Positions 9,383-57,770 of a stretch of 64,000 nt of DNA are shown here, piece by piece. The translations under genes and the position numbers were made by a program. The notes under the pieces were generated by a model. It did no database searches. It was not told the origin of the DNA and worked only from the letters and a program-made list of their open reading frames with translations. This DNA comes from Planctomycetota bacterium (GTDB taxonomy: Bacteria > Planctomycetota > UBA8108 > SXIK01), in contig OZ244999.1 in assembly GCA_965223265.1 (NCBI GenBank), forward strand, positions 128,001-192,000. The letters are read 5' to 3'. Within the stretch, counting starts at the first letter, position 1. Every line of letters begins with the position of its first letter.

Positions 9383-12300
9383 CTAACGGATGTGAATGAA
9401 TTCTTTGAGATTGTAGAACGAATGGGCGATCTCTTTCCACACCGCGATGCTCGACATCACGTCCTCAGCGGCGACTTTGTGTCCGGCAGCGAGGTCTTGG
9501 ACCATGGCTGACCAGCGCTTGAGCTCGGCGGTCGAAGCCGGCCGACCCACTGCACGGAGAAACATCTCTTGCAGTCGCACGGCAACCTCGCGCTTGCCAT
9601 CGGCGACTACCCGCTCGGCCCACGTCCTGGCTTGATCGGTCACGAAGTGGCTGTTCAGGAGAGCTAGGGACTGCGCCACGGTGCTCGTGACGTCGCGGCG
9701 GCCGGTGGGGATTTTTGGGTCCGGTTGGTTGAAGGCGGCAAGGAATTTCGCCGGCTCCATGATCGTCACCTTGGTGTAGAGAGAGCGGCGGCCGCGGCCG
9801 TCGAGTGGGCCGGCGAAGAGGCGTTTAGTCGGATCTTCCTTTTCGCGAAATGGCTGCAAAGGCGATCCATGCAGACGTCGGTCGAGCCGACCGGATGTCG
9901 CAAGCATAGCATCCCGAATTGATTCAGCCTCAAGGCGCCGCAGCGGGTAATGGGAGACGAGGCGGTTGTAAGGGTCGGCAGCGAGAGCCTTCTGCGTCGC
10001 TTGGCCGCTCTGTCGCCACGTCCTCGACGTGACAATGGTGCGGACGAGTCCCTTGAGCGACCAGCCCTCGTCGACGAACCTCGCCGCCAGATGATCGAGA
10101 AGCTCTGGATGGGATGGCGCGTCACCAAGTCGACCGAAGTTATTCGGCGTCGAGACGATCCCTGTGCCGAAGAGCCAATGCCAAACCCGGTTGACGAACA
10201 CGCGTGCCGTGAGAGGATTGTCGGGACTGACAAGTGCTTCCGCGAGTTCGCGCCGGCCGCTGCTGCGCGTATTTGTTGCCAGCGTCGATGCCGAGAGCAC
10301 ACGGAGGTATCCGCGCGGTACGGCTTCGCCGAGCTGGTCGTAATCGCCGCGGATGTTGAGGCGATAGTCGTATCCCGGGTCGTGCTCGAGCATGCCGTTG
10401 ACGGTCGCCGGCGTGGAGAGTGCTTGTTCAGCGGTGCGATAACTCTCGACGAGTTGCTTGATCTTGTCGGCTTCTCTTGTTTTCTCTTTTGCCTGTTCGC
10501 CAGCGTCATTGCTTCCAACAACGATCCGATTCGTGAGGAGGTCGCTGCGCAGTAACCAGTTGATCAATCGAACGTCGTCAGGTGACGCCTCGCCTGCGCG
10601 CCAGCTTTTCAGTGCCGCGACGAGCCAGTCGGCGTACCGCTCAGCGGCTTGTTCCAGAGTCGTAGGGGCCGCTGCGGCGAACAGCGATTTGAATCGTGCC
10701 AGCTCATCCTGAGGTTGAGCATCGACGTCGTGGACGACGACGCGCGTGAGGCCGAACCAGCTCCGCGGATCGGCGGCCTGGTCTTCAGAGCACTTATCTC
10801 CGAGGCCGACGCGAGGCGGGAAGTTTGGATTGCTCGCCTTCGTAGCGAATTCTATGTAGACGTGTCGTTCCTGCTCGTCCGGTCGCGTGGCGAGCGAGAT
10901 CCACGTCGGTTCGTCCGCCTTCAGATACTTCTGCTTCTCTGTCAGAAACGCGTTGTCTATGACGGTGCGATGCGCCGCGAAGTCGCCGCCGGCAGTTTCA
11001 AAGCTGATGCGCGCCCTGTCGTACATGTCTAAGCGCGGCGTCCGCACGGCACCATTCATCCGGGGCGAGAGTGCATCGGTGGAGAAACCTCCGGGGAGCA
11101 GACGGCTGATAACCTCGCCGCCGTTGGTGGCGACAACAAAATCGCCGCATGCGACCCTGTCGCGCACGCCGACGCCGTCGACGGACCAACTATCAGGGAT
11201 GCCATGGCGGAAGTCGGCGATGAGCTCGAAGTTCTCGGCGTTGGCGCTGACTCGCTTGTGGGAGGCGTCCTCGTAGCGCTGCGCGATGTGGCGCCAGGCT
11301 GTCGCGATGTCAGCTCCCTCAGCCGCGGCCTTCGTCAGCTCGAACCAGGTGTGCAGGGGATGCTCAAGCTTTGCCAATGCGTCGCGGTCCAACGAATCGG
11401 ATAGACGTGCCCAAGCCTTGCCCCGCTCGTCTCTGTCATCTGTTGCGTTGTCGGTGCTGGACGGCGGCGGCGCTCCGACGCGCACCAAGTGTTTCGCGAA
11501 CTTCGTAGCGTCGGCGAGCCAAAGCTCGGCGATCAGTGGCTGGATCCTAGCCTTCAGGTCCTGAAGCTCGCGCAGCTGCGTCGCGTGCTGGCCGGGTAAG
11601 TCGAGAGTGCTCGTGATCCAACGCGAACTCATGAAGACGCCCGCGAGTGCGTAGTATTCGTTTTGTGAGATCGGGTCTAGCTTGTGGTCGTGACAACGCG
11701 AGCAAGAGACGGTGAGTGCTTGGAAGGCCTTCGAAAAGGCATCGATCTTGTTGTCGATCATCTCCTGGTGGACGCCGTTGAACTCGGAGCTGTCGCCGTG
11801 TCGGTTTTCGCCGAGCTGAAAGAACATCGGGCCGATGAGCGACTCGTTGAATTCGCTGCCCAGCGTCCGTGGATTCTCGAGAAGGTCGCCGGCGATCTGT
11901 TCACGGAAGAGCTCGTCAATCGGCACGTCCGCGTTAAAGGCACGCACGAGATAGTCGCGGTAGCGCCACGCGCCTTTGGCAGCAATGTCCCACTCGTAGC
12001 CGTAGGTGTCTGTATAGCGGACGACATCCATCCAGTGGCGTGCCCAACGTTCGCCGAAGTGTGGAGACGCCAGGAGTTCGTCGACCAGCCGGCTCCATCC
12101 GCGGGGCGACGGGTCCGAGAGAAACTCGTCGACGTGATCCGGACTGGGCGGTAGACCCGTGAGGGCGAACGCGAGTCGGCGTGCGAGCGTTCTGGGATCG
12201 GCTTGTTGTGCCGGTGAGAGTTCGTGGGCTTCGAGGCGTGCCAGAATGTAACGGTCGATACTACCCGCCGGCCATGTCGTGTCTTTCACGGCCGGCGTGT

Positions 12301-12685
12301 CCGGCGCGCGCACCGGCACAAAACTCCACCAGTCGCGCCGTTCATCGAACAGCGCTTGCCAATGCTGTGCCGCCAGGAGCTTGGGATCGGGCGGGTGGTC
12401 GCGCGGATCGGGTGCGCCCAGTTCGACCCAGCGCACGAAGTCACGGATGATGCGATCGGGTAGCTTTTTTTTCGGCGGCATCTCGAGGCCGCTGTGCTTG
12501 ATCGCATCGACGAGCAGGCTCCTAGAAGCGTCGCCCGGAACGACCGCCGGCCCGGAGTCTCCGCCGTGGCGGACGCCATCGCGACTGTCGAGTCGTAACC
12601 CACCCTTGGGCGTGGCGGCCGCGGAGGAGTGGCACTCGTAGCACTCAGCGATCAGAACTGGGCGGATCTTCTTCTCGAAGAAGTC
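9383..12685 (-). pseudogene. 3' part (~1100 codons) of the PSCyt1/DUF1549/DUF1553 gene interrupted by the integrated island
   Basis: DFFEKKIRPVLIAECYECH, HFGERWARHWMDVVRY, CSRCHDHK, NPLTARVFVNRVW, PSHPELLD. The native signal-peptide 5' end is at 57770-57657. Confidence 0.9.
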
Positions 12686-12686
12686 C
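12671..12686. repeat. att core copy 1 (left junction) CTTCTCGAAGAAGTCC
   Basis: Identical to 30029-30044 and 57657-57672; encodes DFFEK on the minus strand. Confidence 0.93.
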
Positions 12687-12819
12687 TCCGGATTTTCTAA
12701 GTGACGATCTCTGGGATTCTTCAATAAGTATTCCAGCGGAGACGCCACAGAGATCTCCCAAACACAAACACACAATAGACACGCAATCGATGCGTGTTTA
12801 TGAAACTTCGGAGGAGAAG

Positions 12820-13556
12820 ATGATGAGAAAAACAAACTGACTCCTGAGTTGCGCCATTCGGCGTATCTTGCCTTCCAGAACATTAGACAGCGGTGCACGA
12901 ATCGCAACAACAAGGATTTTGACGACTACGGCGGCCGAGGGATCGAATGCGCGCTCTCGCAGGAGGAATTCGCCGATCTCTACTTCCGGACGGATTGCTG
13001 CGAGCTCTGCGGAACTCTGCTGAACGACGAGAACCGAAAGAAAGCGGACGGACGAACGATCGACCGGATCGACCACGACGGTGACTACTCGAGCGAGAAC
13101 GTTCGCGTCATCTGTCGCTCGTGCGGCAGGCGGAACGGGAAGATCCCGGCACGTCGGACGGCGAACGGGAAGCGCAAGGTCAACGGCAAGGCCAACGGCA
13201 ACGGCTGTCTCCCGACTCCGTTCCAGAAGAACGACGGGAAGTGGTACTGCCACTACCAAGGGACGCAGCACTACCTCGGAGAGAACCCCGACGAGAAGAT
13301 CCGGAAGCTCGTTGCCGGTGAGACGATCACGAACGGGGACCGGACGCTCTTGTCGACCGTCGTCGAGATGTACCTCGCCCACGTAGAGCCGATCCAGTCT
13401 CCCGATTCGGTCGCCAACAAGCGGAGGACGTACAGGCGGCTCGTCGAGGACGTCGGGAACATCCCGATTCGGGATGTCACGATCGAGCGTCTCGAGAAGT
13501 ACCGCAACGGTCCGTCTCGTGCTCTTCGCTCGAGATGTTCTTGCAAGCGGCGGTAG
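12820..13556 (+). pseudogene. HNH endonuclease fused to a tyrosine-integrase N-terminal region, truncated before the catalytic domain
   Basis: QNIRQRCTNRNNKDFDDYGGRGI, CELC and TIDRIDHDGDYSSENVRVICRSC, then FQKNDGKWYCHYQGTQHYLGENPDEKIRKLVA...LEKYRN matching integrase 30184. Similarity ends at ~13508. RBS GGAGGAG plus ATG 12820 is one base out of frame at an A5 run. Confidence 0.85.
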
Positions 13557-13710
13557 AAATCAAGTGGCAAGCACAGGCACGGACGGCAGTTGAATCTCAT
13601 GCTCGCCGCGCGCACGATCAGCCTACCGCTCGGACTTGGGATGTGGTACTTTGCGTTCCCGGGACAAGCTGATCCACGGATCAGAAGATCCATGCTCGGA
13701 GGCGTACGCT

Positions 13711-14307
13711 ATGGTGAAGAGAAAAACGCCAGCGGCGAGTACGCGAAAGTCCACTGCTCTCGAAAGGCTCCAGCCCGCAGAGTCCGAAGAGGTTCTCGGA
13801 GCCTTTCTGAAAGCGCACCCAGAACTCCGGAAAGAAGCCGAGGAGATCGCGCGTTCGCTGATCTCGGACGTGTCGTTCGACGAGGTCGCCGAAAAGGTGG
13901 AGTGGGAGCTCGAGTCGCACGATCTCGACGAGCTGAACTCCAGGGCGGGAAAGACTCGCTGGGGTTACACCGACCCCACCGACGCGGCCCACGAGATCCT
14001 TCACGAGGCGATCGATCCGATCATCGAGGAGATGAAACGGCACCTCGAGCTGGGGCTCGAGCGAGAGGCGCTCGAGATGTGCAAGGGTCTCGTGCTGGGG
14101 CGATACGGGGTTCGCGACAAGAAGAACGATGGTTGCCTCGGTTGGGCAGGCGACTTCTGCTGGCAGACCGCAGAGGAAGTCCTGGAGAAGTGGTCGAAGG
14201 GGATTCGAGGGAAGGGGAGGAACGGAAGGAGCGCCAGACTGCGTTCGTTCCTCGACGAACTCGCTCCCGAGTGGATCTCGACGTTCGAACGTGTTCTGTC
14301 GAAGTGA
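13711..14307 (+). CDS. Hypothetical helical acidic protein
   Basis: GGAGG before ATG 13711; coding-like composition. Confidence 0.7.
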   Translation: MVKRKTPAASTRKSTALERLQPAESEEVLGAFLKAHPELRKEAEEIARSLISDVSFDEVAEKVEWELESHDLDELNSRAGKTRWGYTDPTDAAHEILHEAIDPIIEEMKRHLELGLEREALEMCKGLVLGRYGVRDKKNDGCLGWAGDFCWQTAEEVLEKWSKGIRGKGRNGRSARLRSFLDELAPEWISTFERVLSK

Positions 14308-14378
14308 CGTCATGATTCGGAAGAAACCAGACCCCATCGAGCGCTCGATGGAGATTGCCCTGCGACCAGGGCGGTTCA

Positions 14379-14939
14379 TCAGATACGCGGATCCTGCTCG
14401 ACCACCACAGGAAAGCCCGTTGTTTCGGCCAGGCTCAATACACGTGCCCGGATGGCTTCGTCCTTTTCGGGCTTGCCAGGCGGATCGAGGAGCGTGTACG
14501 GAATCGAGCGAATCCAGTCGTTGTGCAGGTCGAGCACGACTTCGGGTTTGGTCTCTACGATCGCGCCGAAGATCTTCGACGCGATTCGTTCCGCCAGGGT
14601 ACCCGTCGGGTTGCCAGGAAACGATCGATTGAGATCTTCCTTGCTGAATGTCACATGCCGCGCGGCCATCTCGAAGCCGATCGGATTCATGAGCGGAAAC
14701 GCGTGCAGCGTGCCTCTCAAGAGCGGGGACTTGCGAAGCTGCTTGAAGACTTCCTGTACGACCACGATCCCGCCGACTTCGTCGCCGTGGGAGCAGGCGG
14801 TGAGCCAAACCGTCGGACCACGACGCTGGCTCCTGGCCTCCATGTACGGGATCCGCCTTGGAGACAAGTCGGAGCCGCTCAAAATCTTGAGGAGCGAATA
14901 GCGAAATCGCGTTCGGTCCTGGTCAATGCTCCGTGGCAT
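14379..14939 (-). pseudogene. Succinylglutamate desuccinylase/aspartoacylase family protein, C-terminally truncated
   Basis: TACSHGDEVGG, DLNRSFPG, VLDLHND; only 186 aa, ending at a head-on junction with another gene fragment. Confidence 0.8.
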
Positions 14940-15368
14940 GTCCGAGCGCGAGACCGCCGATCACGTCGACGGCACGATGTCGCAGCCGGAGCCACACACC
15001 GGTCCGGGGCGTCGTCTCGGCCTGCTAAGACGTCCCGCCTCTTCGCTCACTCGGGAGTCGCGTCGCCCGTCTTTGGACGACGGAGAGGCGGGACGTAGAT
15101 TCCTTTCTACCCGGCCGCTTTGGCTTTCTCCTTCCGCTTCGGCCGGCGCGGGGTCTTCTTGGCCTTGGAATCTTCCGTCGCGCTCGCCTTTTTGGGGCCT
15201 TTCTTTCGCGGCATTGAACCGTCCTCCTCAAGTAACGCCTTCAAGACTCGCTCTGAGACCATCCCAGAGCTCGTCGAGGGAGCAAGCACAGCGTGTGCCA
15301 ATGCGGCGTGCGCGATCGCGATTCTGCGTCCCTGGGCTGCGCCCCCGAAAAGTTGACGCCCGTGATGC

Positions 15369-16805
15369 TCAGTACTTGAAGTGGTTCTTGTCCAGGTCGT
15401 GCTTCTTGAGCTTGTCGAACAAGTTTCGTGTCGTCATTCCGGCGCGCTTTGCCGCCTCACCGACACGGCCACCGCTGATCCGAAGCAACTCGGCGAAGTA
15501 CTCCTTCTCGAAGGCGTCGACGACCTCGCTCTTCGCCTCGGCGAACGGTCGGGTTGCCAGCTCTGCTGCCGGTCGAGGCCCGACGGGAGCCGCGTTCACT
15601 GTCTCGCCAGAACCGGCCGTTCGCTCAGAGCCGTTCAGCCAGACAGGCAGGTCGTTCGGTTTCACGGCACTCCCTCTGGAAAGAAGCATCGAACGTTCGA
15701 CGACGTTGACGAGCTCCCTGATGTTGCCTGGCCACGCGTACTGCTCCATGGCGTGGAGTGCCGCGTCGGAGAAGTGCTGCACCTTGGTCGCCATGCGTCC
15801 CTGAAAGTAGCGCGTGTACGTGGCGACGAGCCCACGGATGTCTTCCTTGCGCTCGCTAAGTGGCGGGACCTCCAGCGTGACGACTCCGAGTCGGTAGTAG
15901 AGATCCTCCCGGAACGTCTTCGCCGTCACGAGCTCCCGTAGCTCACGGTTCGTCGCCGACATGACTCTGACGTCAATTGCGATGGAGCGTTCTGCGCCGA
16001 CTGGCGTCACCTCTCGGTCCTGAAGCACGCGCAGGAGCCGAGACTGAAGGTGGAGCGGCATTTCGCCGATTTCGTCGAGGAATACCGTTCCGCGGTGTGC
16101 GAGCTCGAACCAGCCGCGGCGTGTCGTCGTGGCTCCCGTGAAGGAACCTCGCGCGTGGCCGAAGAGCTCGCTCTCGAGGAGGCTCTCCGGAAGCGCACCG
16201 CAGTTAACCGCCACGAAAGGTCCCTTTGCTCGCGAACTCGCCTGGTGAATCGCTCGAGCCAACCGTTCCTTGCCGACGCCAGTCTCGCCGGTGATGAGGA
16301 GTGTCGAGTCGCTATCGACCACACGCTCCACGACTGACATGAACGCCTGCATCGTGGCGCTCGTCGTCACGAAGTCGCTCAGTTTCGGAGTGTCGATCTC
16401 GCGCTCGAGGAGCAACTCATCGGAACGCTCCTGACGAACCCGGGCAAGAATCCCCTCGAGCGCTTGCGACAAGAGATCGTCGTCTAGGGAAAGGTCGAGA
16501 TGAGCGACGGCACCTGCGGCGACAATCCGCGCATCGTCGTCCGAGTCCTGCTGGGCGCTCAGGACCGCGAGTCGCGGCGCGCCCGGGACGTCGCTCAACA
16601 TAGCCACACTCTGAGGGGCCGGCTTGGGAACGAGCGCACGACTTACAAGGACTATGTCACCGGCATACTGGGCGAGCCGACCCCACAGCGGTTGCTTGCT
16701 CTTTCGAATCGTTTCGACAAACGTGTCGGGCTGCGGACGAAGAAGCCCTCGCAACCGCTTTGTTGTATCGCCGTCCTCGGCACAGATGAGCACTCGTAGA
16801 AGCAT
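15369..16805 (-). CDS. Sigma54-dependent (NtrC/Fis family) activator with atypical receiver domain
   Basis: [46 protein letters not shown]-terminal HTH. Confidence 0.93.
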
Positions 16806-16955
16806 TGCAAATCGTCACTCGCGGCCTGGCAGTCCGGAAGAATTATCTCCGAAAAATCAGAAGTCGCAAGGATGTGCTCTCATCTCGCGATCGCAGCCCC
16901 GCATAACCTATTTAAAAACAGTCAATTACGGCTTTCCCCGTGACGCCGCTCGCTT

Positions 16956-16971
16956 TGGCGTACGAAGTGCT
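16956..16971 (+). promoter_or_regulatory. Putative sigma54 -24/-12 promoter of glutamine synthetase III
   Basis: TGGCGTACGAAGTGCT = GG-N10-GC; AT-rich tract upstream; divergent activator gene adjacent. Confidence 0.6.
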
Positions 16972-17006
16972 TGGGGCTCCTCCAAGTGCTGAGGAGTCTT
17001 ACGCCC

Positions 17007-19199
<2,193 letters not shown>

Positions 19200-19342
19200 G
19201 CGGCGAGGCGGTCCGCCGAAGCGGTCACGGCCTCGCTAAAAAGCGGAAGTTTACCTTCTTATAAAGCGGAGCTGCTGGGCGCCACCCCGACCAGCAAGCC
19301 ACAAGGTGTTTTATGTGAGCCAGTTACGAATCCGGATTGGTG

Positions 19343-19358
19343 TGGCGCCACGTTTGCT
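19343..19358 (+). promoter_or_regulatory. Putative sigma54 promoter of the CBS-hsp20-groESL operon
   Basis: TGGCGCCACGTTTGCT, a close match to TGGCAC-N5-TTGCW. Confidence 0.7.
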
Positions 19359-19422
19359 AAACGTTCGCACGTCGACCTTCTGTCGAGTGACGGACAGTGC
19401 CGGAAAACTATGGTACTCAGCC

Positions 19423-19536
19423 ATGACAAAGACACCCGAGCAACCCAAGCCGGAGCCTGTACCGCCGCCGACCCAGGAGGACGGTGACGAGAAGCCGAGA
19501 CCCAGGCCCGGACCACGGCCTCGTCCCGCCGGTTGA
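19423..19536 (+). CDS. Possible 37-aa Pro-rich small protein
   Basis: ATG about 65 bp after the sigma54 motif; MTKTPEQPKPEPVPPPTQEDGDEKPRPRPGPRPRPAG; no clear RBS. Confidence 0.35.
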   Translation: MTKTPEQPKPEPVPPPTQEDGDEKPRPRPGPRPRPAG

Positions 19537-19599
19537 TCGAAGAACTGAAACCTCGTCCATAGATGAGGCGATTGTAGGCAGGTCACAAGGAGGTAGCCG

Positions 19600-20076: not shown

Positions 20077-20099
20077 GCATTTCGAAAGGAGTGTTACAG

Positions 20100-20537: not shown

Positions 20538-20579
20538 CGTCGGGATCTCTGTGCCCGGTGCCTGGAGGTGATTTAACAA

Positions 20580-20879: not shown

Positions 20880-20925
20880 CATCAGAAGAAGTGAGCGCTC
20901 CATACCGTAGGAGCGAACCATAGCC

Positions 20926-22536: not shown

Positions 22537-22572
22537 ACGGGCTCCCCCAGGAGCAATGGAAGGAAATAACCG

Positions 22573-23151: not shown

Positions 23152-23158
23152 CGTAGAA

Positions 23159-47770: not shown

Positions 47771-47851
47771 CCATCAAGATACAGCGACCAAAAAACACCG
47801 CCCAGGTTGAAGATTGCATATCCGCAGGTATCGCACCGTGTATGCTAACAG

Positions 47852-49591
47852 CTAACCGGGGTGCATAGTCTTCTCGATCACCTCTGAGCGTTCGAGGACT
47901 TCCCGCACTTGTTGCGGCGTTCGGCACTGAAGAGCCCGATCAGCGACTTGCGACGCATCACGGCAACGGACATGCCGCAATGCGTCACGCACACCGGCGG
48001 CTTGAGTGGGGCTCAAGCTCAGTTCTCGCACGCCCAGTCCGACCAGTAAGCAGGCGAAGTGCGCAATCCCGGCCTCTTCGCCGCACACGCAGACAGGACA
48101 TTGCCATCTTTCCGTCGCCTCAACAATTTGCCTGATCGCTCTCAGAACTGCGGGGTGCATAGCAGTGCAGTCGTCCGTCACCTCGCAGCAATCCCGATCC
48201 AGCGCGAGCATGTACTGCGTCAAATCGTTGGTGCCGAGGGCCACGAAATCAGCCAAGTCGAGAATCTCGTCCAAGGCATACAGTGCCGCCGGAGTTTCTA
48301 TCATCGCCCCAATAGGAGGTCTTCTTAGCAAGCTCAGTTCCTCGACGACAGTATCGACCGCCTCGATGGCCCGGGCAAAGTCGTCGCTGCCAATGACCAT
48401 CGGAAACAGGATTCGTACGTCCGACGCTTGCGCTACATATAGGATGGCACGTAACTGCGTATCAAGGAGAGTTCGCTCGGCCAGTGAGAATCGCAAACCC
48501 CGCAGGTGAAGGCTAGTACGCCTTTGCGATCCCTCCTCCGACAGGAGAAAGGGCGGAAGTTTGTCACCGCCAAGATCGAAGGTGCGGATGACCAACCGCA
48601 GGCCATCGAGGCTTCTCGCCATGCTGTCGTAAATCTCCAGCTGCATCGGATAATCCGGACGCTCGTGCGATTCGATGAAGAGAAACTCCGTGCGAAATAG
48701 CCCCGCACCGACAAGATTGTGTTTCGCGACGCGCTCAACCTCATCGGGGCGGCCGATATTGGCTAGCAGCGAGATTTCAATGCCGTCCTCAGTGACACAC
48801 GGGAGTTTCTCGTCAACCGCGATCGATGTTGCGAGACTCTCGTATTTCCGCTTCCGCTTTAGGAAACTCTCCTCGTCCGACGGTGAGGGAGCGACCACCA
48901 CGCCTCCCGTCTCACCATCTACAAGCAATCGCACGCCGGCATGAATCAGCCCAGTGACGTCGGAGATTCCCGTAACCGCGGGAATACCTAACGACGTGGC
49001 CACGATGGCTGTGTGGCTGTATTTCCCTCCGTGTTCGGATACGATCGCGATGATTCCGGACTTTGCGAGCTCGACGGTTTCCGACGGCAGTAGTTCCCTG
49101 GCCACGATGACCGATCCGCGCGGCAAGGGTTCGTTGGTCCAAGGCGGAGAACCCTCCAAGTGCCGCATGATCCGCCGTCCCACGTCACGGACGTCTTGTT
49201 CGCGCTCGCGAAAATAGGCGCTATCCAGTCGTTCCAGACGCTCGACGAAGTCGCGGATCACCGAATCGAGCGCGTGCTCCACGTTGACAAACTCGCGGCC
49301 GATGTGTCGCTTCACCAGCGCGCCGATTTCGTTCGCGATTTCCGAATGGGCGGACAACAGGGCCCCACAGTCGGCGAGCCGTGGCTCGCTCGAGGCAGTC
49401 CGCTCGACGATCTTCAAGGCCTGACTGGATTGTTCCAAGGCGTCGTCGAGCCGTTGACATTCCGGCTCGACTTCTGAATGCGATATCGCACGACGTGGCA
49501 ACTCGAGCTTGCGTTCAATCTCATAGTCGTAAACAACGGCGATTCCACTGGCGTAACCAGCAGAAACAGGAATCCCTTGCAGGCGCAGCAT
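47852..49591 (-). CDS. ptsI: PEP-protein phosphotransferase (PTS Enzyme I)
   Basis: GGKYSHTAIVA, GLFRTEF, RTFDLGGDK, MIETP, GTNDLTQY, VCGE. Confidence 0.88.
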   Translation of the reverse strand: MLRLQGIPVSAGYASGIAVVYDYEIERKLELPRRAISHSEVEPECQRLDDALEQSSQALKIVERTASSEPRLADCGALLSAHSEIANEIGALVKRHIGREFVNVEHALDSVIRDFVERLERLDSAYFREREQDVRDVGRRIMRHLEGSPPWTNEPLPRGSVIVARELLPSETVELAKSGIIAIVSEHGGKYSHTAIVATSLGIPAVTGISDVTGLIHAGVRLLVDGETGGVVVAPSPSDEESFLKRKRKYESLATSIAVDEKLPCVTEDGIEISLLANIGRPDEVERVAKHNLVGAGLFRTEFLFIESHERPDYPMQLEIYDSMARSLDGLRLVIRTFDLGGDKLPPFLLSEEGSQRRTSLHLRGLRFSLAERTLLDTQLRAILYVAQASDVRILFPMVIGSDDFARAIEAVDTVVEELSLLRRPPIGAMIETPAALYALDEILDLADFVALGTNDLTQYMLALDRDCCEVTDDCTAMHPAVLRAIRQIVEATERWQCPVCVCGEEAGIAHFACLLVGLGVRELSLSPTQAAGVRDALRHVRCRDASQVADRALQCRTPQQVREVLERSEVIEKTMHPG

Positions 49592-49597
49592 TCGAAT

Positions 49598-50674
49598 CTA
49601 CTTCCCCACTGCTGTCTGAGCCCTGACCCTTCGCTTCGCACTCTCGCTACGCCGGAGGTCTCTGAGATGGCGGAAGCTGACCAGTTTCTTCGCTGACTCA
49701 TCCCAAAGACGGAAACTGATTGACTTGAGGCTGGAGAACAACGTCACCGGCTTCACGTCCTTGAACATCGGGTCAGCCTCATGGCATTTCTCGAGGTTGT
49801 AGTTGGGAATCCGCGGACTGAGATGATGGATGTGATGAAACCCGATGTTCCCAGAGAACCACTGCAGGATTCTCGGCAGCTTGTAGAACGAACTTCCCTT
49901 CAGCGCCGCCGCAGTGTAATCCCAGTCCTCGCCGCGCTCCCAGTAAACGTCTTCGAACTGGTGCTGGACGTAGAACAGCCAGACCCCCGCGGAACCAGCC
50001 ACGACCATCGCTGTGAACTGGATCACGAGATACGGCACAATGCCGAAGATCATGCTCAACGCGGCCGCCATTCCGAGGACCGCAAGATTCATCGCCCACA
50101 CCGAGTGCCGTTCTCGCCGACTCGCTCTGGGCGACGGAAGCCGCTGCCAGCCCACGAATAGGACAAGGGGAACAATCACGAACAGTACGACCGGGTTGCG
50201 GGCCAGCCGGTAGGCGAAGCGCTTCCAACGGGACGATTCGAGGTACTCCTGAACCGTTAGCGTCCAGATGTCACCGACGCCACGCCGATCCAGATCACCC
50301 GCTGCTCCATGGTGGATTGAGTGCTCCCATCGCCAGTGGTAGTAGGGCGTGAACGTGAGAAGCCCCGAGATGAATCCCCAGAAAGCGTTGGCGGTTCGCG
50401 ACTTGAGAAACGAACCGTGACCGCAGTCATGAAAAATGATGAAAGTCCGCACCAGCAACCCTCCCGCCAGGACCGCCAGCGGCAGCGTAATCCACCAGGA
50501 CACGCTCAGGCTGAGATACATAAGATACCAGAGACCAGCATAGGAGCCGATCGTGTTGACGATCTGCCACGAGGCTCGCCAAAAACTGGGCTTCTGATGT
50601 TCGGCCAAGATCCCCTTCCACGCCGCAATCTCCGCGCGACGCTTGCCCTTGATCGAATTTGAATCCTCCGCCAT
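49598..50674 (-). CDS. Membrane fatty acid desaturase (Bacillus Des-like)
   Basis: His boxes HDCGH, HSIHH, HHIHH; LFYVQHQFE. Confidence 0.93.
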   Translation of the reverse strand: MAEDSNSIKGKRRAEIAAWKGILAEHQKPSFWRASWQIVNTIGSYAGLWYLMYLSLSVSWWITLPLAVLAGGLLVRTFIIFHDCGHGSFLKSRTANAFWGFISGLLTFTPYYHWRWEHSIHHGAAGDLDRRGVGDIWTLTVQEYLESSRWKRFAYRLARNPVVLFVIVPLVLFVGWQRLPSPRASRRERHSVWAMNLAVLGMAAALSMIFGIVPYLVIQFTAMVVAGSAGVWLFYVQHQFEDVYWERGEDWDYTAAALKGSSFYKLPRILQWFSGNIGFHHIHHLSPRIPNYNLEKCHEADPMFKDVKPVTLFSSLKSISFRLWDESAKKLVSFRHLRDLRRSESAKRRVRAQTAVGK

Positions 50675-50721
50675 TCGGTTCCTCTGGGTTTCTTTGGCAT
50701 CGCTAATCAAGCCACGCATTA

Positions 50722-51150
50722 TCAGCCTTCTCCGCCGATATCTCGGTCGGCTTCTCGAATCAGTTTAGACTCCAGATTCTGATGCCTCTTGACCGCGTCG
50801 ATGAGCAAAGCGGTTGCCTTGTGTAGTTCATGTACCGCGGGCGTGCCGTCTTCATCTCTCCGGACAGACAGCTGCAAGACAACCGCTGCCTGCGGCAGCA
50901 GCCTTCTGACGTTCTCGTGGAATTTGGCGCAAAGCGAAATGAGACGAGGATGAGCCCGTGCAATCTCCTTGAAGAACTCCGATGTCCCTGCCTCGAGCGC
51001 CTCGGCATTGAGGGCTTGCTCAAGCGAGTCAAGGTATTGATTCGCTTTAGCTGCCCACCGAGCCTCGCGGTCTGTGTATGACTCTCCAAGTAACTTCGTC
51101 AGCCGATCCAGCGACTCGCGCACGCACATGTTCGACCGCTCTGTATCCAT
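50722..51150 (-). CDS. Hemerythrin-like four-helix hypothetical protein
   Basis: Helical; KFHE and RHQNLE motifs; in the same operon as its neighbours. Confidence 0.55.
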   Translation of the reverse strand: MDTERSNMCVRESLDRLTKLLGESYTDREARWAAKANQYLDSLEQALNAEALEAGTSEFFKEIARAHPRLISLCAKFHENVRRLLPQAAVVLQLSVRRDEDGTPAVHELHKATALLIDAVKRHQNLESKLIREADRDIGGEG

Positions 51151-51159
51151 TCTTACCCT

Positions 51160-51687
51160 CTATTCCGCTCGCGGAGTTAGCCGCGACTGCGTCGCTTCCA
51201 ACGCGCGGCAGCGGTCTCGGACGGAGCGAAACGGCATGCCCTCCTCCCGTTCATACCGCTCTGCTCGGAGGAACCAGAACGCCAAACCGCCGGTGTTGTG
51301 GTACGCGCCCGGCGTAGTCTCGCCAGAGACCACCGCCGCGCGAACGCCTAGAGATCCCTTTCTGCCCGTCTTTCGCCATCCGCGCCGCTCCATGATCATG
51401 CGAACGAGCACGCCGATCGCCTGCCGCAGTCGTTTCGCGCGACTGGGGTGTTGCGCAGCGAGGAACTCCTCGATGGCGGGTTGCGACTCGAGCTCCCGGA
51501 CTACGCCAGCTAGAGGGGCCCTGTCGTGGTGGATCTCGGATTCTTCCATGCGACGTTGCCGATCCTCATCGTTGAAAAACTCGAGCACCCGGTCGAAGGG
51601 TGCTTCCGGATCACCCACCACGTCGGCGAACGTCTTGCCTCGCGGTTCCTCAAGGAACTCTTCCAGGGTGAAGGTCAAGTGGTTCAT
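51160..51687 (-). CDS. Hypothetical protein
   Basis: Coding-like ORF 9 bp upstream of the next gene; GRKGSLG..FWFLRAERY. Confidence 0.7.
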   Translation of the reverse strand: MNHLTFTLEEFLEEPRGKTFADVVGDPEAPFDRVLEFFNDEDRQRRMEESEIHHDRAPLAGVVRELESQPAIEEFLAAQHPSRAKRLRQAIGVLVRMIMERRGWRKTGRKGSLGVRAAVVSGETTPGAYHNTGGLAFWFLRAERYEREEGMPFRSVRDRCRALEATQSRLTPRAE

Positions 51688-51822
51688 TTGGCACCTGAAT
51701 CGTGAGTGGATAGCTAATTACAGGTTTTGCACGTTCAAATTTTGCACCTACAAATATGGTATCAGATAAGCTCGCATTTTCAAGGACTGGTAGGCCCCTT
51801 TGAACAAACGACTTGTAGGAGG

Positions 51823-52509
51823 TCAGGACGACTGGCGGCAGCCGGCGGGAGGAGGTCCGGCTGCGAACTGGTAGATGAACTTCCAGTGGACAGCCATTCC
51901 CGCCACCACCGCTATGTGCCAAAGCTCGTGCGGACCGATCACTCCGGGGATGATCGTCGGCCAGCCGAGACCGAGGAGAATAGCCCCGAGGGAGTACACC
52001 GCTCCTCCCACGACAAGAGGCCGAACGAACGCAAAGCCGTATCTGCGCCAGAGCACCACTGCCGAGCAGCCGGCGATCCAACCCAGCGCCAAATAGACGG
52101 TCGTTCCGAGTCCCCGCGGAAGTTGGTCGAAGAAGACGGTGAACAACGTGATCCCTGTCGCTACGAGCGTCCACATGAGCGCGAGCACCCCCCAACGTGA
52201 GATGCCGTTGAAGAAGATCCCCTGTACGGGAGTGAACGTGCCGGCGATCAGTACAAAGATTGCGGCCTTGTCAAGACGGAAAAGGACCGCACGGGCGGTT
52301 CCACCGCTCGAGAGCATGTGGTACACGCCGCTCATCGACAGGAGCAGCACCGATGAGAACGCGAACACGCTCAAGCAGAGAACCCGCCACACGTTCCCCC
52401 GTCCACGACGGAGTAGGAAGATCGTCGCTACGGCGAAGACCAGCGCTCCGACAAGATGAATCCAGGAACTGACCGGCTCGTTGAATCCCGGTATCGGGTG
52501 GGTTTCCAT
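51823..52509 (-). CDS. Hemolysin III / PAQR family membrane protein
   Basis: SSWIHLVG, SGVYH, RLDKAAIFVLIAGTFTP, YLALGW, HELWH. Confidence 0.92.
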   Translation of the reverse strand: METHPIPGFNEPVSSWIHLVGALVFAVATIFLLRRGRGNVWRVLCLSVFAFSSVLLLSMSGVYHMLSSGGTARAVLFRLDKAAIFVLIAGTFTPVQGIFFNGISRWGVLALMWTLVATGITLFTVFFDQLPRGLGTTVYLALGWIAGCSAVVLWRRYGFAFVRPLVVGGAVYSLGAILLGLGWPTIIPGVIGPHELWHIAVVAGMAVHWKFIYQFAAGPPPAGCRQSS

Positions 52510-52799
52510 CGCGCGCCAACGATTTCCTTTCCGCCTGAAGATCCGAACTCACGAATCCCGGCGGGTATTCTCCGCTTTCATTGGCGTCAAGGAAAGGGCG
52601 AGCCTTGGCCCACTACGGTAGGACTTATGCCGAATCGTCCGTGATCTGCGAACCAACGGAGAGGCCCTGAATCGTCGCTTGGCGCGGCTCTCAACAGAGG
52701 TCTTGTCAGGTTTTCGGTCACTCGCTAAATTGTTCTCGATGAGTTTGTCAACGAAGCATGACCCGAAGAGGAATTGTTCTGCACGTGGAGAATGGTTCC

Positions 52800-53843
52800 A
52801 TGCCGAGCGAAGAAACAGAACTGCCCAAATTCGGAAAGCAGCTGCTTGACGCGACACGGCCGTTCGCGGTGGAGTCCTCGATTAGAAGTTGGTGGTCTGT
52901 GGGCTCCACGCTTGTCGTGCTCGGAGCGATACTCGTCGTGGCAGCGCTCGCCCCTTGGTGGCCGTTGCGGCTCGGCGGGTCAGTTCTTGCCGGACTGCTG
53001 CTGGTACGGACATTCATCCTGTACCACGACTTCATGCACCGAGCCCTCTTGCGTCAATCACGATTCGCGAAGGCGCTATTCTATTTCTTCGGACTGCTCC
53101 TGCTGACACCTCCGCGGTACTGGCGATACAGCCACAACTTCCACCATGCGAACGTCGGCAAGCCGCTCAACGCGGCCGACGCCGGTCCGGCCCTCCTTGT
53201 GACATCGGACATCGGCTCATTTCCGCTCATGACTACGGACACGTGGCAAGAAACCTCGATCTGGCAGCGTCTGCGATATCGTGTCAGCCGTCATCCGTTG
53301 ACACTTCTATGCGCCTATGTGACGGTTTTCCTTTTCAGCCTCTGCCTCCTGCCACTGCTGCAGAATCCGCGGAAGTACTGGGACGGCGCACTGTCGCTCC
53401 TCGCGCATGGCGCGCTCGTTGCCGGGCTCTGGGTGTTTGCTGGATTCGCTGCACTCTTTTTCTCCTTCTTGCTGCCTTTCACGATTGCAGCAGCCGCCGG
53501 AGCGTACCTTTTCTTCGCGCAGCACAACTACGAGGGTATGCGCGTGTTGAAGCCGGAGGAGTGGACCTATTATCGAGGCGCGACTGAGTCATCAAGTCAC
53601 ATGAAGCTCGGCTCGTTGATGCACTGGTTCACGGGAAATATCGGCTACCATCACGTCCACCACTTGAATCCTCTCATTCCGTTCTATCGCCTCCCGGAAG
53701 CGATGGCCGCCATTCCCGAGCTCCAACAGCCGCAGATGACATCACTTCGTCCTCGCGACATTCTCGCGTGTCTGCGATTGAATCTCTGGGACCCGGAGAG
53801 GCGACGACTCGTCAGTTACGGCGAGGCGAGGAAGGCGGTGTGA
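52800..53843 (+). CDS. Membrane fatty acid desaturase
   Basis: HDFMH, HNFHH, HHVHH; FAQHN. Confidence 0.92.
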   Translation: MPSEETELPKFGKQLLDATRPFAVESSIRSWWSVGSTLVVLGAILVVAALAPWWPLRLGGSVLAGLLLVRTFILYHDFMHRALLRQSRFAKALFYFFGLLLLTPPRYWRYSHNFHHANVGKPLNAADAGPALLVTSDIGSFPLMTTDTWQETSIWQRLRYRVSRHPLTLLCAYVTVFLFSLCLLPLLQNPRKYWDGALSLLAHGALVAGLWVFAGFAALFFSFLLPFTIAAAAGAYLFFAQHNYEGMRVLKPEEWTYYRGATESSSHMKLGSLMHWFTGNIGYHHVHHLNPLIPFYRLPEAMAAIPELQQPQMTSLRPRDILACLRLNLWDPERRRLVSYGEARKAV

Positions 53844-53916
53844 ACAACGCAACAAGCGCAGTGGAAGCGATCCGCATGGTCCAATCGGATAACCATCGAG
53901 CCATGCGGCTAGGCGG

Positions 53917-54912
53917 TCAGGCCGCTTCTCGAAACGAGATCATCCGATCAGCTTCGGTGTCCCATAGGTTTAACCGGAGACATCGCCACACGTCCCGCAC
54001 AGCGAGCGAGGTCTCACCCGGAGACTGCAACTCCTCGATTCCATCCATGGCCTCGGGCAGTCGGTAGAAGGGGATACGCGCGTTGAGGTGATGGACATGA
54101 TGATAGCCGATATTCCCCGTGAACCAGTTGAGAATCGGGCCCATGCGAATGAAGCTCGAGGAGTGAACGGCCGCGAAGAAGTAATCCCAATCCTTGCTTT
54201 CGCGAAGCTTGACCGCGGGGAAGTTGTGCTGCGCGTAGAAAAGATAGGCGCCGAGCCCCGAGGCAACGATCATAGGGATCACGATGAGGTAGAAGACGAC
54301 TCCCGGATTGATGAGCAGAAGCGCCACGACGAGACCAATGTGAAGGACAATCGACAGAGCCGAGTCCCAGTGCATCCTTGGGTTGACCAGAAAGGAGCGA
54401 AGACACATGCCCCAAAAGAAGATGGTCAAGTAGCCCAAGGCGATCGTAACCGGATGTCTTGAGAGTGCGTAGACGAAGCGTGTAACACGCGAGGCACGCT
54501 CGTAGCTCTCTCGCGTCATCACCGGGTACGAGCCAATGCTTGCACCGTAGATCTTAGCATTGTTCCTGTGATGATGATCGTGTGAGCGACGCCAGATGCT
54601 TGGCGGATTGAGCACCAAAAGGCCATAGATGCGCATGATCGTTCGTGCTACACGCGAACCCCGGAAAATCGTGCCGTGTTCCGAATCGTGGTAGAGGATG
54701 AAGATCCGCACCATAACAAGCCCCAGGAGAAAGCTCGCCGCCAGTGTCACTGCGAGCGACCCGCCCATGAAGGTCAGTACGGCGAGAACGCCGAAGACCG
54801 AAAATGTCGACAGGAGATGCCACCAACTCAGCCAGGGACGTTCGCACGCGTACGCCTTACTGTGGAGTACGACCTCTTTGCTTCCTCTGACGGTTGTCCT
54901 CTCTACTTCCAT
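53917..54912 (-). CDS. Membrane fatty acid desaturase
   Basis: HDSEH, HDHHH, HHVHH; YAQHN. Confidence 0.92.
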   Translation of the reverse strand: MEVERTTVRGSKEVVLHSKAYACERPWLSWWHLLSTFSVFGVLAVLTFMGGSLAVTLAASFLLGLVMVRIFILYHDSEHGTIFRGSRVARTIMRIYGLLVLNPPSIWRRSHDHHHRNNAKIYGASIGSYPVMTRESYERASRVTRFVYALSRHPVTIALGYLTIFFWGMCLRSFLVNPRMHWDSALSIVLHIGLVVALLLINPGVVFYLIVIPMIVASGLGAYLFYAQHNFPAVKLRESKDWDYFFAAVHSSSFIRMGPILNWFTGNIGYHHVHHLNARIPFYRLPEAMDGIEELQSPGETSLAVRDVWRCLRLNLWDTEADRMISFREAA

Positions 54913-54915
54913 TCC

Positions 54916-55227
54916 TTAGGATCCTTGAAAGCTGCGTTGCTCCGCATCGGGAATCGCGCCTCCTTCTCCCTCTTCGCCTTCGCGTTCGTCCTTCTTTGTT
55001 TTTTGAGGTGCTTCCGTGTCCCGGCGTTTCTCCGTCTGCTCTTCCGTTACGTGGCCTGTGGACGTTCCTTCTTCGCTTGCGCACTCGATCGTCTTGACTC
55101 CCAGCGACGACGAGCCGTTTTCGGCGGCCGCCTTCCGCTCTGCTTTCCTTCTCGCCTTTTCTTCGCGGCGTTCTCTCTTGGCTCGTTCTCTGCGGCGCTT
55201 TTCGAAGGATGGGTTTGATTTCGCCAA
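54916..55227 (-). CDS. Small protein with Lys/Arg-rich N-terminus and acidic C-terminus
   Basis: AAGGAGA RBS before the TTG; MAKSNPSFEKRRRERAKRERREEK; stop 3 bp before the desaturase start. Confidence 0.7.
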   Translation of the reverse strand: MAKSNPSFEKRRRERAKRERREEKARRKAERKAAAENGSSSLGVKTIECASEEGTSTGHVTEEQTEKRRDTEAPQKTKKDEREGEEGEGGAIPDAEQRSFQGS

Positions 55228-56498
55228 GGCGCGTCTCCTTTCACTTGCTGCTTTCGTGTGCGAGCCCTCGTTGACCTCGAAGCGACACAGGTCACGACCG
55301 TCGGCGTCGGTTGCACATCGCTTGACTGGAGTTCCTCCGGCGTCCGCTCGACTTGGATCGTTCTTCTCGTCAGTTGTTCAATGGCTTGAAGCTGAGGTCG
55401 CTCGATGCTCGCGCAGAAGGAGATCGCCGTTCCCGGGGCACCCGCTCTTCCCGTACGACCAATTCGGTGCACATAGACTTCGGCGACCTCGGGGAGGTCG
55501 AGATTGAACACATGCGTGATGCCGTTGACGTCGAGGCCTCGCGCTGCGATGTCCGTCGCGACCAGCACAGAGACCTGACCTGATCGAAACTGGTCGAGTA
55601 CTCGCTGACGCTGGCCCTGGCTCTTGTTGCCGTGGATCGCCGCCGCCAACAGACCAACACGCTTGAGATGCTTCACCACCTTGTCGGCCCCGTACTTCGT
55701 GCGAGTGAAGGCGAGTGAACGATTGCCGGGCAGGTTTCGCAAGAGGGATGCAAGCAAACGCGGCTTCTGCTTCTTGCCGACGTAGTAAAGCGATTGTTCG
55801 ACGTCCTCCGCCGGTGTGGAAACCGGATCCACTTGAACGTGAACCGAATCCGTGAGCCATTCTTGCGCGAGCTCACGAATCTCGCGCGGCATCGTCGCCG
55901 AGAACATCAGAGTCTGGCGCTTTGCCGGGACCGTCTTGACGATGCGCTTCAGTGCATGAATGAAGCCGATATCGAGCATGTGATCGGCTTCATCGAGAAT
56001 CAGAATCTCAACGGCGTGAAGGCTCACGACGCGTTGCGCCATGAGATCCTCGAGTCGGCCCGGCGTGGCGACCAGGATATCCGCCCCGCGCTTGATCGCC
56101 TGAACCTGCGGACCCTGGCCGACGCCGCCATAGATGACGGTGCTTTTCAGCCCAGTGTAGCGCCCGTAAGCGCGGAACTTCTCGCCGATCTGCGCGGCCA
56201 GCTCGCGCGTGGGTGCAAGAACGAGCGCGCGGATCGAACGCGCTGGAACGAACCGGTGCCGTCGACCGTGTCCCCTGTGACGAGTCCGCGTGCCGTGGCT
56301 CCCTTTCAGGCGCTCCAGCGTCGGCAGGGCAAAAGCCGCCGTCTTGCCGGTGCCTGTCTGGGCGTTACCCATGAGATCCCGGCCCATGAGGACTTCGGGA
56401 ATAGCGCGGATCTGAATCGGGGTGGCTCGCTGGTAGCCTTCGGTATCAACAGCGCGAAGGACCTCCTCGGAAAGACCGAGATCGCAGAAATGACTCAA
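55047..56498 (-). CDS. DEAD-box RNA helicase (RhlE-like); C-terminal end uncertain
   Basis: TPIQ, GTGKT, PTRELA, TPGRL, DEAD, SAT, ARGLD, HRIGRTGR. Confidence 0.93.
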   Translation of the reverse strand: MSHFCDLGLSEEVLRAVDTEGYQRATPIQIRAIPEVLMGRDLMGNAQTGTGKTAAFALPTLERLKGSHGTRTRHRGHGRRHRFVPARSIRALVLAPTRELAAQIGEKFRAYGRYTGLKSTVIYGGVGQGPQVQAIKRGADILVATPGRLEDLMAQRVVSLHAVEILILDEADHMLDIGFIHALKRIVKTVPAKRQTLMFSATMPREIRELAQEWLTDSVHVQVDPVSTPAEDVEQSLYYVGKKQKPRLLASLLRNLPGNRSLAFTRTKYGADKVVKHLKRVGLLAAAIHGNKSQGQRQRVLDQFRSGQVSVLVATDIAARGLDVNGITHVFNLDLPEVAEVYVHRIGRTGRAGAPGTAISFCASIERPQLQAIEQLTRRTIQVERTPEELQSSDVQPTPTVVTCVASRSTRARTRKQQVKGDAPWRNQTHPSKSAAENEPRENAAKKRREGKQSGRRPPKTARRRWESRRSSAQAKKERPQAT

Positions 56499-56659
56499 AT
56501 ATGTCTCTTTTCGTTAATGCGCGCTCCGCGATCCGATGTTCCAAGTCACGCGCACTGAGAGCACACGTGCGATCGAAGAGAGAGCGGCGTGCAGCTAAAT
56601 CCCGCGGAATGCCCAAAACGACATCCCACGGGTGTGTCATCGAGCGATCGGCAAGCGCT

Positions 56660-56929
56660 CTACCAGCGCCCGCGTCCTCCGCCTCCATGCTGGCGCTCTC
56701 GTGCGACATTGACGTTGAGCGCGCGTCCTTCGAATTGGTGACCGTTCAGCGCCGCGATCGCCGCGTCAGCGTTTTCCATTTCGACGAAGCCGAATCCGCG
56801 GGGGCGTCCGGTGTCGCGGTCAGTGATGAGGTTGACGGAGTGGACCTCGCCGTGCTGCGAGAAGAGTCCTTGCAGATCGTCGGAGGTCACGGAGAAGGGG
56901 AGATTCCCCACATACAGCTTCTGAGCCAT
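56660..56929 (-). CDS. RRM RNA-binding protein with Gly-rich tail
   Basis: LYVGNL (RNP2), RGFGFVEM (RNP1), GGGGRGRW; AAGGAG RBS. Confidence 0.95.
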   Translation of the reverse strand: MAQKLYVGNLPFSVTSDDLQGLFSQHGEVHSVNLITDRDTGRPRGFGFVEMENADAAIAALNGHQFEGRALNVNVARERQHGGGGRGRW

Positions 56930-57387
56930 GGCTCGTAGCTCCTTTGAGTCGGTTGCTTCGAGTACAGGCCCAGAGACGTGGAGAGAATCCGAGAGAGACC
57001 AGAGAGCAACGGTTGAAACGTGCGAACGACGCCGACGCGACGTCGTAATGAACGGCAGCGCCCAACTTCGGGACAGCTGTCGAGGCGCACGTCTAACCCC
57101 CGCAGCGCTAAACTAAAGGTCCCCGTCGATCGCTGAAAGTAACTGATAACAAAGCCTTCGGAAAGGGCGGCATCTCAGTTGGCCCACTTCCGGAGTCTTC
57201 GCAGGCCCCTGATGGACTCAATCGGTGGAGTATACCCTAACGTAGCCAGTTTCCCATCGAAATCGGACTTCTGCGATAATGGTCTGCAGTGGGGCCGACG
57301 CTTTTCGCGTGGAGAGAGGTGGAAGAACCGGTAATCGACCCGTGGACGAAATTCCCCAGTCACACCGTCCCGACGCCTCAGAGATCG

Positions 57388-57672
57388 AGAAACCGCCGGA
57401 AATCGCCGGTCTCTCATTCAACTCTCCGCCGCCCTTGAAACACGTGTTTCACCCGAACGCGGCTCCGGCGCTCCCCGAAACCCGAGCTCCCAATCCACGA
57501 TCTCACCCGTTGATCTTCGTCGCGAATCTGAAGATCGTGCATTCGTGAATCGAAGCCGCGCCGGAATTCAAAGGTATCGACTTCTCCCAGAAGCTGATCC
57601 CTCGATCCGTAACTCCGCGTATTCCGCGAAGAAAGGATCCCTCACAAAGGTATCGACTTCTCGAAGAAGTCC
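57388..57672. repeat. Conserved right end of element B including att core copy 3 (57657-57672)
   Basis: Colinear motifs shared with 29737-30044. Confidence 0.9.
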
Positions 57673-57770
57673 ATACTCCCGGAGTCGACAGCACTGTCGT
57701 TAGCCACGCCCGTCTGGGCGGCTAAGTAGAGCGCGATCAGGATTGGCGACCACGAGACACTTGCTCTCAT
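57642..57770 (-). pseudogene. 5' fragment (signal peptide to DFFEK) of the interrupted PSCyt1/DUF1549/DUF1553 gene
   Basis: MRASVSWSPILIALYLAAQTGVANDSAVDSGSMDFFEK then SIPL-stop in element DNA; joins in frame to KIRPVLIAECYECH at 12670. Confidence 0.9.

Follow-up and report, generated by a model that had tools for sequence, protein, structure and literature searches.

A planctomycete genome, searched here as a single contig of 9.18 Mb, carries within a 64,000-nucleotide stretch (G000:C1:128001-192000, called the window below) an insert of about 45 kb in the 5' end of a gene with PSCyt1, PSCyt2/DUF1549 and PSD1/DUF1553 domains, gene A. With little doubt, this insert consists of two tandem site-specific islands, E1 (17,358 bp) and then E2 (27,628 bp), that have a 16-bp core in common. 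The reading that we favour as a whole, and consider likely, is that of tandem islands whose integrase recombines at the codons for DFFEK and which exchange the leader of the gene for one of their own. By this mechanism, the integrase would recombine a site of the island with at least 11 nucleotides of the gene, GACTTCTTCGA, which encode D-F-F-E near the start of PSCyt1/DUF1549/DUF1553 genes; because this stretch recurs in paralogs, several genes per genome could act as host attachment sites (attB). On its integrase side the island would come with a start codon and with about 50 codons of signal-peptide-like leader that share the reading frame of the core, so that integration would exchange the promoter, start and leader of the gene for island-borne ones, and the native first 38 codons would remain as a stub at the far boundary.

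The 16-mer CTTCTCGAAGAAGTCC is found without mismatch at 12671-12686, 30029-30044 and 57657-57672 (no match in 100 shuffles), and exact copies are confined to this locus in the genome. The first of these cores (attL, the left attachment site) is where the body of gene A meets the left end of E1, the middle one (attM) is where the right end of E1 meets the left end of E2, and the third (attR, the right attachment site) is again an exact match of the repeat. To its left, the middle core is flanked by the same sequence as the core at 57657 (29942-30045 and 57570-57673, 95% identity), and to its right by a sequence resembling the right flank of the core at 12671 (12666-12716 and 30024-30074, 80% identity). 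The insert therefore comprises two head-to-tail elements, E1 (12687..30028, plus strand) and E2 (30045..57656, plus strand), whose lengths above are those of the core-to-core units and whose boundaries are set by the repeats and conserved ends. The middle core lies 155 bp upstream of the start of an integrase gene at 30184. At the right-end junction the core is nearly palindromic (GACTTCT-CGA-AGAAGTC), and in each right end (E1, 29856..30028; E2, 57373..57656; both plus strand) GGTATCGACTTCTC occurs twice in direct orientation with a spacing of about 76 bp, at 29945 and 30021 in E1 and at 57573 and 57649 in E2; these copies would fit core-type binding sites.

Gene A lies on the minus strand. 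Its body (9383..12685; Pfam and translation) begins with the DFFEK codons and runs for 1100 codons to the stop, and the frame at 12685 reads DFFEKKIRPVLIAECYECH. Separated from the body, its native first 38 codons form a stub (57657..57770, minus strand) that holds a start codon, a signal-peptide-like segment and DFFEK: the open reading frame (ORF) from 57770 reads MRASVSWSPILIALYLAAQTGVANDSAVDSGSMDFFEK, then SIPL, then a stop. Removal of 12671-57656 (44,986 bp) in silico yields one ORF of 1133 aa with zero internal stops, in which the core forms codons 34-38, the 5' end of a protein-coding gene. The rebuilt gene stands between the PhyH-family gene that was its upstream neighbour before the insertion (57856..58740, minus strand; PF05721, E 4.3e-15) and its downstream partner, a DUF1501 gene (7901..9373, minus strand; PF07394, E 1.4e-126). 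An earlier note on the window, made without database searches, had described the outer repeats 44,986 bp apart, the stub from 57770 and the gene frame at 12685, the 1133-aa ORF and the restored order PhyH > PSCyt > DUF1501, and had placed a tyrosine-integrase element exactly in the DFFEK codons; shuffling, translation, scripted deletion and Pfam searches bear all of this out. The integrative insert that it proposed also stands, but not as a single island, as the third core at 30029 makes two of it and the integrase on the gene side is truncated.

An intact gene resembling the rebuilt 5' end, which the note had looked to related genomes to provide, is present in G007, a member of another family of the same order and not a close strain. 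This ortholog (G007:C11:49172-52450) is uninterrupted, is 61% identical to gene A over 1098 residues and its full length, reads through ...RIDFFEKKIRPVL / ...LLAQPGPEDADRIDFFEKKIRPVL without a break, and adjoins a DUF1501 gene 76% identical to that of the window; the stub resembles its N-terminus (...ICLLAQPGPEDADRIDFFEKK). The site thus exists empty in a relative. The PSCyt family is characterized in PMC5615132 as abundant and of unknown function.

Repeats of this kind might also arise with no mobile element at all, through recombination or duplication among PSCyt paralogs or through misassembly, as the core sits in a motif common to paralogs and the four source runs are apparently metagenomic, with a depth of about 10x. 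This explanation is scarcely credible given the conserved non-genic ends of 200-250 nt around cores at two loci, the integrase gene so close to the middle core, the uninterrupted ortholog, and an island-borne leader far more conserved than the gene bodies that it precedes. Logan contigs of the four runs (one study), compared over window positions 11000-30999, a range that ends short of the 57657 junction, bridge the junctions at 12671 and 30029 as assembled. Alternative letters appear in these contigs at 12694, 12869, 12875 and 29995-30013; the last group is the E2 right end aligned onto the E1 right end, and the variants at 12694-12875 hint that the samples contain another left end, closely related to this one, or another strain.

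Targeting of DFFEK codons across several paralogs is well supported. A second occupied paralog of the same genome carries island E3 (G000:C1:5888012-5906766; 18.8 kb, without an integrase and with unrelated cargo). At G000:C1:5887996 a signal-peptide stub and DFFEK are followed by an island right end, and at 5906767 an island left end is followed by DFFEK, the gene body and then DUF1501. Compared with the window islands, E3 has 81-85% identity in its right end and about 84% in its left end, and conserved non-genic ends of 200-250 nt flank cores at two separate loci. The two cores of E3 disagree at positions 4 and 16, the pattern expected from an exchange between CTTCTCGAAGAAGTCC and a host CTTTTCGAAGAAGTCG inside TCGAAGAAGTC; the host 16-mer CTTTTCGAAGAAGTCG exists unoccupied in a third paralog at G000:C1:4230454. 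The genome contains 15 PSCyt1-type genes with an N-terminal FFE (strict regular expression), three of which possess the exact 11-mer GACTTCTTCGA; two of these three are occupied, and the third is intact with relic island ends about 4-26 kb upstream. In G001, a genome of the same family, there are two attL-like relic junctions (left end plus gene body) and one attR-like stub junction, and in G007:C124, from the other family of this order, both junctions are present in a mini-element of 1.5 kb. The five occupied genes have 45-55% mutual identity and are therefore different paralogs. The earlier note's notion of an attB motif shared by paralogs is accordingly met with in practice, at two occupied genes in its own genome and in relics at three more (G001 and G007).

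Several of these sites have further peculiarities. The decayed ends upstream of the paralog at 4230454 (G000:C1:4234488-4256848) include a 45-nt left-end piece at 4234488, right ends with partial cores at 4239345-4239573 and 4253700-4254012, and smaller pieces at 4240790, 4243170 and 4256745; a flank of about 100 nt that follows three of the decayed cores recurs inside E3 (about 5889489-5889593). In the E3 stub, about 100 nt of the right-end terminus are repeated in inverted orientation between the signal peptide and the core (G000:C1:5887919-5888013; L064:5912-6011), in frame and adding 27 codons (RIDFPQK...NRIDFFEK), so that a right-end terminus faces the core from either side; an insertion that once occurred the other way round and was then deleted down to an inner core-like repeat may have left this trace. 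In G001 the stub-type junction (G001:C4:2907836-2907868) is reduced to a 33-nt palindrome made up of the core and half-sites. Two cargo genes of E3 have homologs (83-85% protein identity) 5.5 kb past this stub (2913337-2916373) and not within an island, and 1.5-3.5 Mb separate the stub from the left-end junctions that match it, an arrangement indicative of rearrangement between copies of the island.

At the junction with the body of gene A, E1 supplies a leader of 50 codons in frame with DFFEK (12686..12835, minus strand). It starts with TTG (12833-12835), its hydrophobic core is ASIACLLCVCV and its c-region ends in SVAS before P; the frame is open 80 codons upstream. In all five left ends of this long type (E1, E3, G001a, G001b and G007), 64-80 codons are open and a TTG is aligned at codon -49 to -51; basic residues come next, then a hydrophobic core (Kyte-Doolittle 11-residue mean of 2.3-2.9) and finally a short c-region. 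The nucleotide identity of these ends is 54-81%, and the one indel among the leaders is of 6 nt and keeps the frame. The left end of E2 (30045..30205, minus strand) has an in-frame leader of its own, with ATG at codon -54 and the core VLLCLSALVVL, that overlaps the first integrase codons on the opposite strand.

The strongest evidence is a database search with only the leader as query, which recovered P0042, P0043 and P0044, three PSCyt proteins in other public assemblies, with N-termini 92, 94 and 80% identical to it and bodies only 45, 43 and 43% identical to gene A, the break falling exactly at (D/E)FFEK. Independent gene callers start these three proteins at or next to the codon aligned with the TTG. 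Within the genome itself, leader-like peptides (E<1e-3) occur at the three element left ends and nowhere else. A leader conserved at 80-94% identity on divergent PSCyt bodies implies that the leader is a mobile module that heads different paralogs. The occupied genes, for their part, appear sound: matches to PSCyt1, PSCyt2 and PSD1 are kept in all five, even where the island has mostly decayed. Four of the genes are complete, and the fifth (G007_C124) is open over 798 codons to the start of its contig, where the PSD1 match is cut. The relics retain the leader and the first 60-140 nt of an integrase gene with an HNH-like domain, the rest of the element being gone; as the start codons of the leader and of this HNH-integrase are about 13 nt apart, a promoter for the leader would have to lie in the retained 60-140 nt. 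Because the island provides an in-frame start and leader and the occupied genes are intact, the gene has probably been re-headed rather than switched off, and the leader and an island promoter would presumably be functional. Exchange of the leader is the best reading of what integration does to the gene, and judged from the sequences it is somewhat favoured over doubt.

The earlier note had instead compared the insertion to an excision-controlled switch of the kind represented by skin, the nifD element and the comK prophage, with the gene off until programmed excision. The perfect 16-bp repeats, the 1133-aa ORF with a plausible native leader obtained by excision in silico, the intact integrase of E2, and the start codon and open frame that the native stub keeps are all compatible with a switch. 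We nevertheless hold it to be improbable and set this claim aside: the junction on the gene-body side carries an in-frame start codon and signal-peptide-like leader, the same leader is present on otherwise unrelated public PSCyt proteins, and genes that bear integrase-less relics, beyond any excision, keep their PSCyt1, PSCyt2 and PSD1 matches. Restoration of gene A would moreover need the joint excision of both islands, of which the gene-side one has lost its integrase. In the rows listed, the contigs of the four runs contain integrated junctions but neither excised or circular forms nor a joint 12671>30029, and none of the loose ends falls on a core; as contigs drop rare forms, this comparison is silent on excision.

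Plain insertional inactivation is a more serious rival, and yet unlikely. It would have the DFFEK codons targeted by islands whose leader is non-functional, the dead copies being tolerated through redundancy, for which the genome with its at least 15 related genes offers room. The leader has a weak third-position bias (E1 and E3 differ at 9, 8 and 12 sites in codon positions 1, 2 and 3), promoter scans detected no sigma-70-type consensus near it, and the divergent starts about 13 nt apart leave no ordinary intergenic space for a promoter. Dead copies would not be expected to have bodies uninterrupted and matched by PSCyt1, PSCyt2 and PSD1 in five of five occupied genes, old relics included, nor to preserve an aligned TTG and open frame in five of five long-type left ends despite their nucleotide divergence, nor to accept a leader indel only of a length that preserves the frame; and the relics have lost most of the integrase gene while keeping the leader and its adjoining 60-140 nt.

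The weak codon bias and the missing consensus promoter nonetheless count against an exchange of leaders by site-specific islands, and they do so together with results of several other kinds. The E2-type leader has zero database matches, and a search of the 56-aa leader against the 1.84 billion cluster representatives of a 50%-cluster library returned two short fragments only. No recombination directionality factor was recognized by Pfam and PHROGs scans of the island ORFs, and the contigs contain no excised form, as already stated. The family is narrow: left-end DNA was found in three of 59 genomes of the class, a 23-nt motif of right end plus core in two of 401 genomes sampled from the phylum, and only one intact integrase of the clade of Int2, the integrase of E2, across the genomes searched. 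Finally, homologs of this integrase do not abut PSCyt genes as the earlier note had predicted, as none of the five assessable loci with relatives at 44-51% identity (L007, L008, L009, L081 and L082) has a PSCyt gene beside the integrase.

Two additional features of the E1 leader were observed. A stem-loop with a 7-bp stem, ACACGCA-TCGAT-TGCGTGT, lies inside it (12779-12797, minus strand) and was called terminator-like by the scan; the stem is kept in all five long-type leaders with a variable loop, and its bases also encode a conserved H-A-x-x-A-C, which makes RNA or DNA structure inseparable from coding constraint. The genome's own protein record for gene A, P0045 (9383-12748, 1121 aa), starts at a GTG at codon -21 (MASPLEY...), downstream of the hydrophobic core, and the annotated product is therefore without a signal peptide.

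The integrase of E2, Int2 (30184..31191, plus strand; 335 aa), is an intact tyrosine integrase with SAM-like N-terminal domains. It matches PF00589 with E 5.6e-34 and 117.8 bits (cut-off 27.1) over profile positions 2-170 of 172, and its residues 49-139 match the SAM-like core-binding domains PF13102 and PF14659. Among 26 relatives, R193, R194, K218, K221, H284, R287 and H310 are invariant and Y319 nearly so, residues of the kinds typical of the catalytic site. Int2 presumably catalyses the reaction, with strand exchange inside the 11 nt, and it could mobilise E1 and E3 in trans. E2 also encodes the C-terminal fragment of another integrase (33932..34258, plus strand; PF00589 positions 90-170), which directly follows a ClpB-like gene and is 75% identical in protein and 76% in nucleotide sequence to the part of Int2 from residue 226 to residue 335; with this second fragment E2 has the look of two related islands that were fused or rearranged. 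The integrase gene of E1 (12849..13556, plus strand) is of a longer kind and truncated, with an HNH-like N-terminal domain and the integrase N-terminus but no catalytic domain. It corresponds to the first 221 residues of a longer integrase and has its counterpart, at 82% identity, in residues 10-224 of P0004, a metagenomic protein of 456 aa in which an HNH-like N-terminal domain is fused to a PF00589 integrase. Its PHROGs match is to an HNH endonuclease (E 1.6e-14), and, of Int2, residues 5-106 alone find a match in E1.

Relatives of Int2 are sparse and distant. There are no close ones in three other genomes of the family, and one of 20 other genomes of the order (G004) has relatives, with 45-49% identity in three places. 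A scan of genome contigs produced 44 loci, among which only L007-L009 exceed 40% identity; the best 80 of 522 metagenomic relatives include as close ones L081 (51%), L082 (47%) and L083 (62%), the last a C-terminal piece with no upstream DNA. A motif scan of L003-L005, possibly the same places as L007-L009 and counted once with them, found the motif at none of the three. IMG/VR contains no Int2 relatives, and in a phage collection all 669 matching records are below 60% identity to Int2, with 25-30% for the five best listed. Seven frames upstream of the related integrases were compared with Pfam and proved to be a WD40 protein, a truncated kinase, a protein with a collagen-binding-like domain and four unmatched frames. 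In two of the five assessable loci a palindrome GACTTTTT..CGAA..AAAGTC precedes the integrase gene, the core-like palindromes being those of L082 and L009. The integrase of L007 (48% identity) is about 240 nt from an N-terminally truncated Ser/Thr kinase ORF (L007:8752-9636, minus strand), in which the Pfam match sets in at position 103 of the 263 in the profile; this ORF is possibly another paralog-family gene cut by an island. A wider and more tentative view, which may be right but which we doubt somewhat more than we believe, is that the islands are portable 'gene heads' with a multi-copy attB in a family of secreted proteins, that every integration exchanges the promoter, start codon and signal peptide of the paralog concerned, that the left end is domesticated as the new 5' end of the gene after the island decays, which would have given rise to the chimeric public PSCyt proteins, and that distant relatives of the integrase may hit other families.

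The closest known system is that of the dusA-specific islands and prophages with dusA-associated integrases. As described for them, these integrases insert in the 5' end of dusA, which is replaced by island sequence, the old 5' end is left at the outer boundary, and the target gene is thought to be still functional (Farrugia et al. 2015, PMC4482086). The islands described here are similar, to judge from their sequence, in being tyrosine-integrase islands in the 5' end of a protein gene that would supply a new 5' end. They differ in that their target is a motif of the PSCyt paralog family with several sites per genome and not a single-copy housekeeping gene such as dusA, in that a start codon and signal-peptide-like leader are replaced, and in their planctomycete-type hosts. 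Gene-interrupting switch elements are exemplified by skin in sigK, SPbeta in spsM, the comK prophage of Listeria and the Sa3int phages in hlb. Like these elements, the islands are inserted site-specifically inside an ORF, and precise excision would rebuild the gene. In contrast to them, the junction of the islands carries a replacement 5' end, the occupied genes remain intact after decay, and neither regulated excision nor a directionality factor of the skin and comK type is in evidence; the islands are set apart from such switches because the frame disruption that defines the latter does not occur. Integrative elements are also known in tandem at a single attachment site, and ICEclc uses several copies of a tRNA-Gly gene. 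The islands resemble such arrays and ICEclc in standing head to tail at one site and in having more than one attB per genome, whereas their multi-copy target is a protein-coding motif of paralogous genes for secreted proteins and not a tRNA gene. In the literature searches made, PSCyt, DUF1549 and DUF1553 genes were not encountered as attachment sites of an integrase.

If correct, these findings would extend the known kinds of attachment site by a new one, a motif that codes for a peptide and is common to paralogs. To our knowledge, few mobile elements and few genetic tools have been described for the planctomycete phylum, and Int2 would be a candidate integrase with defined attB and island (attP) sequences for chromosomal integration in such bacteria. 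The islands suggest a route by which mobile DNA rewires the regulation and export signal of a family of unknown function; they would account for chimeric N-termini of PSCyt proteins, and they expose an annotation trap, of which the start of P0045 at codon -21 is an instance. They also bring extra copies of stress-type genes, namely GroEL, a DEAD-box helicase with desaturases, and PtsP/PtsI.

The cargo of the islands is metabolic and stress-related, and some of the genes are extra copies of chromosomal ones (window positions 16971-19199, 20926-22536 and 53917-56498). According to Pfam, E1 encodes an AstE/M14-like protein, a sigma-54 activator, a type III glutamine synthetase, a CBS protein, GroEL, DUF5698, a methyltransferase-ATP-grasp fusion, GAF-PtsP and an MFS transporter. 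Its glutamine synthetase gene is the sole type III copy in the genome by tblastn, and its GroEL is the fourth copy in the genome, the nearest chromosomal one being 70% identical. By Pfam and PHROGs, the cargo of E2 comprises, in addition to Int2, the ClpB-like AAA+ protein and the integrase fragment, a helix-turn-helix (HTH) regulator, two GT4 and two GH130 proteins, a GH2-like protein, a trypsin-like protease, PtsI, three fatty-acid desaturases, HlyIII and a DEAD-box helicase. The helicase (70%) and the neighbouring desaturase (76%) mirror an adjacent chromosomal pair at G000:C1:5742151-5744900. Neither Pfam searches of 36 ORFs of E1 and E2 nor PHROGs searches of ten ORFs, mostly those without a Pfam match, revealed phage or conjugation families. 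The window has no tRNA genes or Rfam families, and base composition does not clearly mark the islands (0.56-0.64 inside and 0.57-0.63 outside).

A perfect 16-bp palindrome, TGAAACACGTGTTTCA, occurs three times in E2 (34286-34301, 35886-35901 and 57436-57451, the last in its right end), and a variant with two mismatches is present in the right end of E1 (29785-29800). Palindromes of this type lie about 220-245 bp from each right-end core; only 0.07 matches would be expected by chance. TGAAACACGTGTTTCA is a candidate operator for a regulator of the islands, for example the HTH protein encoded at 38148-39104.

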